Positions 53,854 through 55,377 of a stretch of 64,000 nt of DNA are shown here, piece by piece; the stretch's first letter is position 1; every line of letters starts with the position of its first letter. The notes under the pieces were generated by a model, which saw only the letters and a program-made list of their open reading frames with translations, was not told the origin of the DNA and searched no databases. Source of the DNA: Escherichia coli (GTDB taxonomy: Bacteria; Pseudomonadota; Gammaproteobacteria; Enterobacterales; Enterobacteriaceae); the NCBI RefSeq assembly GCF_013122565.1, contig NZ_CP053258.1; one strand, 5' to 3'. Position numbers and translations under genes: made by a program.

Positions 53854-55377
53854 TTGAGTGTGATGGTAAAAATGTTTGACTCTATGCATGTTCGGGTTGC
53901 TGTAAATTTTGCATCAAAGATAACATTTGCTTTGATATCTATAATTACAATCCCAGTTATAAAATCAAAATTAGGAGTAAATGCTTATGGTGTCCTAACA
54001 TTCTTTCTATCAATCCAGGTAGTTATATTACTGCTTGAGGGGGGAATGAGTGCCACAATGGCTAGAGGACTATTGAATAAAAAATATAAGATATACAATA
54101 TAAGTAAAGCAGAGTACCAAAGTGTTTATTTTATCTTTTTTATCTTAGTGTCATTATTTGTATTTTCAATTTTTATTGTCTTTAACCATAATATTTCCAC
54201 ATTGATTTACAACCTTGATGATAGGGAAGTCTATAGTTTTATTAGTGCTGATTATGTTATTTTGCTGGCTGGTGCAATGATTGCCTTGCAGTTTTATATC
54301 ATATATTATGAAGCATTATTTGTGGCTTATGAAAAACAAGTCTCTTATGGAATTCATATAATAGTATTTAATGTAGTCAAAACCATAATATCATTATTCT
54401 TGTTGATTGTTTTTAATCTTGGGTTGGATGTTTATTTTTTAGTTCATGTATTTTGTACCTTTATACTTATTATTTTATTGCACATTAAGGCAATAAAAAA
54501 CGGATTATTAGAAATAACAACATTGCGAGTAAAAAAAATATACACAAAAATATCATTTATGAAAGAAGAATTTCATTTTTCTAAAAATATATTATGCGTG
54601 TCCATTCTTTCTGCAATTGCATTCCAAGCTGACAGACTATTTATTACAAAATATATGGGTATTAGTGCTGTTGGAATGTATGGCATTGCTTATACATTAT
54701 CAACAGTACCAACTTTATTTACATCATCATTGTATAATGTTATCTATCCAAGACTTATTATTTTAACAAGAGAGCAAAGCAGCAGTGCGATTTCATTTTT
54801 TGAATTAGTATCGAAATTAATATATATTATCATAATACCCACTTGTGTGATTATTTCGCTTAATTCGACCCAAATCCTAAATATTTGGATAGGAAAGCAC
54901 GAAGGAATAATATCATTGCTGTTAAGTATTCTAATAATAGCGACGTTATTTCAGGGGTTGCAGGTGATTCCTTTTGCACTACAGATGGCTCAAGAACGAC
55001 TAAAATTTACAGTTTTCATGAATGCTATATTTGTGCCCAGCCTAATATTGGCATATTATTTGGTTAGTATTCATAAAATTCTGTTATACATCTCCATAGT
55101 GTGGTCGGTATATAATATAATAACTTTTTTCTCTTTAACTATTTATTTATATGCTAAAAATAAAATGTATACAAGACTACTTATTTTATATTTTAATATA
55201 TGCTTGTGTGCTGTCGTAACAGTAGTTATATGTAGCATTTTTAAAAATCAAGAATCTCAAATATTCTTGTCTCTAGTTAATATTTCTCTTCAGTTTTTTA
55301 TGTCGATGAGCTTGTGCATAATACTGTTGTTCTGGAAAACTATATATGGAGCATTGAGATGTGTTTGTTGTCGGTAG
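53854..55377 (+). CDS. wzx: O-antigen flippase Wzx (507-aa ORF; true start may be a downstream ATG)
   Basis: Highly hydrophobic multi-TM protein of the polysaccharide biosynthesis type with a Wzx-like N-terminal region (PVIKSKLGVNAYGVLTF); lies inside the O-antigen cluster. Confidence 0.7.
   Translation: MSVMVKMFDSMHVRVAVNFASKITFALISIITIPVIKSKLGVNAYGVLTFFLSIQVVILLLEGGMSATMARGLLNKKYKIYNISKAEYQSVYFIFFILVSLFVFSIFIVFNHNISTLIYNLDDREVYSFISADYVILLAGAMIALQFYIIYYEALFVAYEKQVSYGIHIIVFNVVKTIISLFLLIVFNLGLDVYFLVHVFCTFILIILLHIKAIKNGLLEITTLRVKKIYTKISFMKEEFHFSKNILCVSILSAIAFQADRLFITKYMGISAVGMYGIAYTLSTVPTLFTSSLYNVIYPRLIILTREQSSSAISFFELVSKLIYIIIIPTCVIISLNSTQILNIWIGKHEGIISLLLSILIIATLFQGLQVIPFALQMAQERLKFTVFMNAIFVPSLILAYYLVSIHKILLYISIVWSVYNIITFFSLTIYLYAKNKMYTRLLILYFNICLCAVVTVVICSIFKNQESQIFLSLVNISLQFFMSMSLCIILLFWKTIYGALRCVCCR

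Follow-up and report, generated by a model that had tools for sequence, protein, structure and literature searches.

In the Escherichia coli O3 O-antigen cluster, the gene that follows wzx probably encodes a single-domain inverting GT-A enzyme of the CAZy GT2 type that ends in a basic helical tail, and its translation starts at ATG 55359, within the 3' end of wzx, so that 19 nt are shared. All positions are those of the window, the whole stretch of 64,000 nucleotides that was analysed, and wzx, GT2, wzy, the FnlA-like, RmlD-like and WbuC genes and the features inside them lie on its plus strand. The gene, called GT2 here, is an already annotated, ordinary O-antigen glycosyltransferase of an uncharacterised GT2 subfamily, and the linkage of this subfamily to one sugar-nucleotide pathway is the only lead.

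The O3 cluster occupies 49-62 kb of the window, with a G+C content of 27-33% against about 50% in the flanks. Its order is galF, an ISAs1 element, a GT4 gene (51849-53012), wzx, GT2, wzy, an FnlA-like gene, a gene for an RmlD-like reductase, a WbuC cupin gene, a second GT2, a second GT4 and gnd; the glycosyltransferase content is therefore two GT2 and two GT4 genes. The wzx gene (53884-55377; 497 aa from ATG 53884) encodes the O3-family O-antigen flippase, as seen from PF01943/PF13440 and RefSeq. Its frame is open from TTG 53854 (53854-55377), the RefSeq start is the equivalent of 53884, and its stop is the TAG at 55375-55377. GT2 (55359-56528) encodes 389 aa, and wzy (56525-57610) the O3-family O-antigen polymerase of the EpsG family. 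Downstream are the FnlA-like dehydratase/epimerase (57617-58630) and the RmlD-like reductase (58643-59512), context genes for UDP-L-RhaNAc synthesis, and the WbuC cupin (59502-59969), which is grouped with them. A 3.9-kb stretch around the wzx/GT2 junction has 99.5% identity to 16 complete E. coli RefSeq genomes, in which the three genes are labelled 'O3 family O-antigen flippase', 'glycosyltransferase family 2 protein' and 'O3 family O-antigen polymerase'. The wzx-GT2-wzy stretch thus belongs to the O3 O-antigen operon of E. coli, and its genes carry annotations already.

Fold and conserved motifs of the glycosyltransferase

PF00535 (Glycos_transf_2) matches residues 5-101 of GT2 at 48.7 bits, with a gathering cutoff of 23.3, and is matched by all 46 aligned homologues. 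Sequence searches of Pfam, NCBIfam and the PDB match the protein only over residues ~2-112, and because these matches stop near residue 110 the rest of the protein looked unfamiliar; the first-pass annotation had described it as a ~290-residue C-terminal extension without a recognisable motif. An AlphaFold2 model built on the homologue alignment is confident throughout (pLDDT 93, pTM 0.91). In structure comparison, 256-272 residues of this model align to single-domain GT-A enzymes (272 for RmlT), Foldseek agrees with a GT-A fold over the whole catalytic domain, and no non-GT-A fold was found among the whole-model structure matches. The PF00535 profile, the DXD motif and the fold all place the protein among GT2/GT-A enzymes. 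By structure, the predicted GT-A domain reaches about residue 270-285, so that in the model about 170 of the 290 residues make up the acceptor-side half of this domain. The long extension was an artefact of the reach of PF00535, and about 100-105 residues lie outside the canonical fold. The remark that no motif could be recognised there holds for Pfam, NCBIfam and PDB sequence matches, but not for structure prediction, in which the GT-A fold continues. In such enzymes PF00535 extends no farther than about residue 100, and apparent GT2 'extensions' need a structure check before a new domain is claimed.

In a 46-sequence alignment, 38 columns are invariant from N12 to H302, plus A375. The conserved motifs are D38-x-S40, G-D89-D-D91, Y-x-W-P-D124, Q-G-T...P-K-x-Y-H-G, S-P-D200, P-G-x-S-G-G-S-N-x-G-R-S-A and F-F-S-V-E-T-V-W. 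The DXD metal/nucleotide-sugar motif, D89-D90-D91 (codons 55623-55631), lies in a GDDD run (G88-D91) that is invariant in the 46 sequences and comes right after beta strand 83-86. Two invariant residues, E269 and the D200 of the near-invariant S-P-D motif (codon 55956-55958), are candidates for the catalytic base. D200 is proposed as a candidate from its position relative to SpsA in alignments, where it is likened to Asp191, the catalytic base proposed for that enzyme. Residues 221-305 (56019-56273) are family-specific and highly conserved, running from P-G-x-S-G-G-S-N-x-G-R-S-A through H-x-G, W and P-x-F-F-S-V-E-T-V-W to H302; no other part of the protein or of the family is as conserved as residues 221-280 within them (top-residue frequency 0.77-0.79). 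Residues 221-305 are predicted to belong to the catalytic domain, on its acceptor side. A division of labour can be proposed in which residues 1 to about 120 would bind the nucleotide sugar through D38-x-S40 and the DXD motif, and residues 120 to about 285, which complete the GT-A fold and carry the most conserved motifs, most likely form the acceptor/catalytic side.

SpsA (1qg8/1h7l), CgT/GalT1 (5hea), TarP (6h1j), TarS (5tze) and RmlT (8bz4) are likewise soluble or peripheral GT-A enzymes of the CAZy GT2 type, to which O3 GT2 shows an identity of only 13-21%. It differs from them in the family-specific invariant motifs of its acceptor side (PGxSGGSNxGRSA and FFSVETVW), and for these regions sequence searches gave no match to solved structures or curated families. 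Its appendage is a basic helical tail of ~100 residues, whereas TarP and TarS have beta-rich trimerisation domains. The PglI-type GT2 glucosyltransferases that act on Und-PP-linked acceptors (NF050050; AvpGT, 9jma) are ~306 aa and have neither the conserved 221-305 motifs nor the long tail. Against the PglI equivalog NF050050 the O3 protein scores 49.3 bits (cutoff 500), matching over the N-terminal ~100 residues only; because this is far below the equivalog cutoff, it is not regarded as a PglI orthologue. The WcaA equivalog TIGR04017 gave 38.8 bits (cutoff 495.75), again only from the N-terminal ~100 residues. The C-terminal transmembrane helices of the integral-membrane GT2 type (GtrB, DPMS, ArnC) were not found in O3 GT2.

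Family members are ~380-430 residues long and can be aligned over their full length. When 1.84 billion representative proteins were screened with a profile of residues 212-320, it matched 713 representative clusters, 389 of them at E <= 1e-10. Among the best 150 of the 713 clusters, nearly all are ~380-430 aa long with the match at ~215-325. In four short matches that were examined, the first residue is a methionine internal to the family sequence, and for this reason they are taken as N-truncated gene calls. A 797-residue match (P0122) consists of two complete copies joined in tandem, and a 488-residue match carries an N-terminal extension. A 231-aa E. coli 'hypothetical protein' that holds only the C-terminal part (P0004) was considered as an independent module and rejected on account of a frameshift-like corruption of the same gene; among the best 120 protein matches, the only entries named E. 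coli are the O3 protein and this corrupted copy of it. In the profile search, no conserved C-terminal half was found joined to a different N-terminal domain. No curated model or characterised member was found for the subfamily that covers this conserved half. The architecture is widespread, with family members in Proteobacteria, Acidobacteria and Bacteroidota, contrary to the first-pass suggestion that it is specific to this O-unit.

In its catalytic form, that suggestion had been of a bipartite protein, in which a GT2 module of ~100 residues is followed by a second catalytic domain of ~290 residues specific to the O3 unit; it would fit sequence matches confined to residues ~2-112 and the extreme conservation of residues 221-280, as expected of a catalytic site, but is scarcely credible against an alignment of 256-272 residues to single-domain GT-A enzymes, the lack of any second fold or family match (the C-terminal 114 residues alone match no specific fold), a conserved half that in the matches examined is never genuinely alone or apart from the GT2 N-terminal half, and a family that extends far beyond O3.

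Link to the genes of UDP-L-RhaNAc and UDP-L-QuiNAc synthesis

Thirty-six loci were taken from a scan of one genome per species, and in 27 of them an FnlA/WbvB-like and an RmlD/QnlA/WbvR-like gene, here called FnlA-like and RmlD-like, both lie within 10 kb of the GT2 family member. In ten contexts found by protein identity, eight have an FnlA-like gene (64-83% identical to that of O3) and an RmlD-like gene (44-54%) within the same distance. The nine species-level loci without both genes include three on contigs too short to tell, one outlier of 25% identity, one with the FnlA-like gene only, and one with an alternative set of dehydratase, RmlC-like, RmlD-like and 2-epimerase genes. The other three are real negatives, two of them in Achromobacter. 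One inspected negative, an Achromobacter locus (L044), is a small wzz-wzy-GT2 locus, and its sugar genes are possibly elsewhere in the genome. In the V. cholerae O37 pathway, FnlA-like and RmlD-like enzymes reportedly make UDP-L-RhaNAc, which a 2-epimerase is said to convert into UDP-L-QuiNAc. A 2-epimerase gene is present in most loci and absent from O3, from two further clusters (L002, L003) and from a Pseudomonas group.

In many phyla the subfamily is therefore in tight linkage with the UDP-L-RhaNAc/L-QuiNAc pathway, and this gene neighbourhood suggests that GT2 works with one of the two sugars, L-RhaNAc or L-QuiNAc, which may be its donor. Based on this linkage, a tentative model can be put forward in which the ~400-residue GT2 subfamily would be the missing dedicated transferase for N-acetyl-L-rhamnosamine, and perhaps also for L-QuiNAc, with the invariant 221-305 segment as its specificity module. 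If so, each of the hundreds of family members would point to a polysaccharide with a sugar now regarded as very rare, and both L-RhaNAc and L-QuiNAc would be built into the polymers of loci with a 2-epimerase. A polymer with both sugars is the capsule of Vibrio vulnificus BO62316 (PMC8790746). The O3 repeat unit is composed of GlcNAc, Glc, Gal and RhaNAc. L-RhaNAc is also present in Plesiomonas shigelloides O24 and Proteus vulgaris TG155, and the L-QuiNAc clusters of E. coli include O98, O123 and O181. A known reaction would help to predict O-antigen and capsule structures from sequence, and would supply an enzyme for making glycans with rare L-sugars.

The co-location might instead reflect another role, in which GT2 glycosylates an acceptor that already bears L-RhaNAc or L-QuiNAc, builds the acceptor, or is merely carried along in a gene cassette. 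A model for such an acceptor-side role is WbjA of P. aeruginosa O11, which is reported to add Glc onto L-FucNAc; a literature search on this protein found nothing. An acceptor-side or cassette role is to be weighed because in several loci with a 2-epimerase (L006/L022, L013, L011) a WbuB-like GT4 sits directly beside the epimerase gene, and in E. coli the transfer of L-FucNAc/L-QuiNAc has been assigned to the WbuB-family GT4s (HG5; Liu et al. 2020, PMC7685785). Like GT2, WbuB-family enzymes sit in clusters with FnlA-type genes; they belong to a different fold family (GT4, GT-B), and O3 GT2 is unrelated to them in sequence. The location of the most conserved block in the acceptor-side half of the protein also speaks for this alternative. 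On the other side, a review of E. coli O-antigens restricts L-RhaNAc to O3, and there to side branches, a Limnobaculum cluster (L002) has no GT4 at all and places the L-RhaNAc genes directly after GT2, and no WbuB-like match was seen in many of the loci that hold the pathway genes. In O3 itself, the two GT4s gave no match to the WbuB-like queries used. A role other than transfer of the L-sugar has a fairly low probability, and the dedicated transferase too is only a possible reading.

The basic helical tail

The part outside the canonical fold extends from about residue 286-290 to residue 389. It comprises a predicted helix at 291-301 and a poorly conserved basic helical tail (residues 306-389; 56274-56525) with a net charge of +11, in which a short strand (365-368) accompanies helices 303-320, 324-359 and 372-385. 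The mean top-residue frequency of the tail among homologues is 0.24-0.46, and its net charge is positive in all 46 homologues, from +2 to +13. The helix of 36 residues at 324-359 (56328-56435) is hydrophobic and aromatic in its first half and strongly amphipathic and lysine-rich in its second, with a muH of 0.5-0.6 over residues 339-360 (up to 0.61), and is proposed as an interfacial membrane anchor. GT2 is the sole Pfam family matched among the 46 members and none falls in the tail, which also gave no PDB sequence match. Transmembrane anchoring of O3 GT2 was considered and rejected, as hydropathy is too low: the maximum over 19 residues (KD19) is 0.87, so that no transmembrane segment is predicted and helix 324-359 is not a transmembrane one.

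Judged from its composition, the tail is most likely a peripheral, interfacial membrane anchor. In the proposed arrangement, the basic and partly amphipathic segment of about 290-389 would fold back on the catalytic domain and most likely hold GT2 at the cytoplasmic face of the inner membrane, where the undecaprenyl-diphosphate-linked O-unit intermediate would be found; such an anchor suits the enzyme because its acceptor would be an undecaprenyl-diphosphate-linked oligosaccharide. The first-pass annotation had offered a second catalytic or a membrane-association domain for the C-terminal part. The membrane association survives for the last ~85-105 residues, where the charge and a muH of ~0.6 are consistent with it, and the catalytic alternative was dropped.

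The main rival to the anchor is that the tail serves in oligomerisation, through a long coiled-coil-like helix akin to the C-terminal trimerisation domains of TarP and TarS. The length of helix 324-359 is in favour of it, TarP, TarS and the hexameric CgT are among the closest structural relatives, and the tandem fusion of two copies in P0122 is a hint of dimers. This alternative is nevertheless unlikely, since the positive charge is kept in 46 homologues while the sequence is not, which is typical of lipid-facing basic amphipathic segments; furthermore, the coiled-coil matches are generic and score poorly (Z about 5), and a membrane-bound substrate is expected.

The wzx/GT2 junction

The GT2 reading frame is open from GTG 55314, and four in-frame starts give different overlaps with wzx: 64 nt for GTG 55314, 19 nt for ATG 55359, 13 nt for TTG 55365 and 10 nt for TTG 55368. 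GT2 starts at ATG 55359 and the overlap of 19 nt is real. Within the wzx coding sequence, a GGAG Shine-Dalgarno-like sequence (55349-55352) precedes this ATG by 6 nt, and the best anti-SD pairing is -5.6 kcal/mol for ATG 55359 versus -1.9 for GTG 55314. The N-termini of 45 homologues align with MCLLSVV, that is, at ATG 55359, and RefSeq/PGAP uses the same codon (389 aa). The dual-coding overlap (55359-55377) holds the last wzx codons and stop in one frame, and GT2 codons 1-6 with the first base of codon 7 in the other. A syntenic cluster from an unrelated sample (L003), in which proteins are 48-61% identical to those of O3 (48% for wzx, 61% for GT2), has the same ATG, the same GGAG and the same 19-nt overlap. 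The alternative start GTG 55314 (55314-55316) was rejected: it has no SD, no homologue aligns over the extra 15 residues, and RefSeq does not use it. The first-pass range of 19 to 64 nt was right in its arithmetic and in the existence of an overlap, of which the 64-nt form found no support. It had also been foreseen that a true start farther downstream might abolish the overlap. No canonical start just 3' of 55377 keeps the first beta strand (residues 4-10) and the invariant N12/R13, and for this reason the overlap cannot be removed, its minimum being 10 nt.

That minimum belongs to a start at TTG 55368, with a protein of 386 aa, as in an NCBI cluster representative (P0001, standing for 188 member sequences) that begins M-SVVIATHNR, the equivalent of this codon. 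Such a start is highly improbable: the GGAG would then be 15 nt upstream, which is too far, ATG 55359 is kept at the same spacing in L003, the current RefSeq has the 389-aa form, and at least 2-3 residues precede the LS(V/I)V strand in all homologues.

The overlap from ATG 55359 is tight, ordinary operon packing, a fixed property of the sequence rather than a statistical signal. Three of the eight cluster junctions examined are overlaps (-19, -4 and -11 nt), the junctions 3' of wzx/GT2 measure -4, +6, +12, -11 and +25 nt, and no terminator-like site was found between 53 and 57.7 kb of the window. Elsewhere in the GT2 family, the upstream genes vary and the upstream junction is an overlap of 0, 8 or 11 nt or a gap of 1, 33 or 81 nt. 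Since family junctions vary in this way, the overlap is not needed for the enzyme, and the 19-nt form is a trait of the O3-like lineage rather than of the enzyme family.

From the overlap and the SD position, translation of GT2 is probably coupled to that of wzx. Ribosomes ending wzx would stop 19 nt 3' of a GT2 start codon that has a good SD. RNA structure at the junction (55320-55410) was considered as a coupling device, and the fold there is no better than shuffles (z = +0.9); as no RNA structure sequesters the GT2 start, translation of GT2 from its own SD, independent of wzx, is also conceivable. The pair resembles the overlapping, coupled gene pairs of bacteria, both the 4-nt ATGA type and longer ones, in its same-strand stop/start overlap and in the downstream SD inside the upstream gene. 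The GT2/wzy junction is a classic ATGA overlap, in which the ATG of wzy overlaps the GT2 stop by 4 nt, whereas the 19 nt shared by wzx and GT2 are longer than the common 1- and 4-nt classes of bacterial operons.

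Association of the GT2 subfamily with L-sugar pathway genes

The FnlA-like and RmlD-like (QnlA/WbvR-type) genes for UDP-L-RhaNAc synthesis were found co-located with the GT2 subfamily of about 400 residues in 27 of 36 species-level loci, in a survey that covered L002-L049 (for example, L006 at 11453-14484 and L013 at 14229-17277). This co-location of the three genes spans Gamma-, Beta-, Alpha- and Deltaproteobacteria as well as Bacteroidota. A QnlB-type 2-epimerase gene, which leads to UDP-L-QuiNAc, usually accompanies them and is absent from the O3-like and Pseudomonas groups.

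A different gene set adjoins the GT2-subfamily gene in the Terriglobia MAG locus L011 / L041 (14031-17541), where a 317-aa SDR, a 152-aa RmlC-like isomerase, a 294-aa RmlD-like reductase and a 406-aa 2-epimerase are encoded; these enzymes might provide another pathway that yields the same L-6-deoxy-HexNAc sugars. In two Achromobacter loci, L029 and L044, each with a member of the subfamily, a search out to 10 kb brought up no gene of the L-sugar pathway. The L044 member lies in a small wzz-wzy-GT2 locus next to uvrA, ssb and malate synthase, and selected ORFs in the several kb downstream of the GT2 gene gave no Pfam match. A natural tandem fusion was observed in the metagenomic protein P0122 (797 aa), in which two full-length copies of the GT2 subfamily are joined in a single polypeptide, and this hints that enzymes of the subfamily might act as dimers or pairwise.

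The O3 GT2 gene and its neighbors

The 3.9-kb stretch around the O3 GT2 gene (window 55359-56528) is matched in all 16 complete RefSeq O3 genomes at 99.5% rather than 100% identity, and the GT2 protein differs from the NCBI representative P0001 in at least one residue, K320, which is N in P0001. The strain that the window comes from therefore does not belong to the set of complete genomes searched. Downstream, the GT2 gene overlaps wzy on the same strand by 4 nt (ATGA, 56525-56528), and the RmlD-like gene overlaps wbuC, also on the same strand, by 11 nt (59502-59512). The wbuC cupin gene adjacent to the reductase is retained only in O3, the Limnobaculum cluster L002 and L003, a divergent cluster syntenic with O3.

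ISAs1 elements in the O3 cluster

The 871 nt without annotation that separate wzx from the first GT4 gene (window 53013-53883) were recognized as the remnant of an ISAs1 element (H-repeat), degenerate and internally deleted. It shares 71-74% DNA identity with the ISAs1 copy located around 50.3-51.85 kb, and its protein fragments are 46-60% identical to those of that copy. The remnant is found in all 16 RefSeq O3 genomes and annotated in none, and the GT4-wzx junction of L003 measures only about 115 nt. An ISAs1-family transposase ORF separates galF from the first O-antigen gene (window 50613-51662; L001 5813-6863). It is a single 349-aa ORF in the window whereas it is annotated as two pieces (866 and 215 nt) in strain Ceylon31, so that the copies differ by a frameshift.
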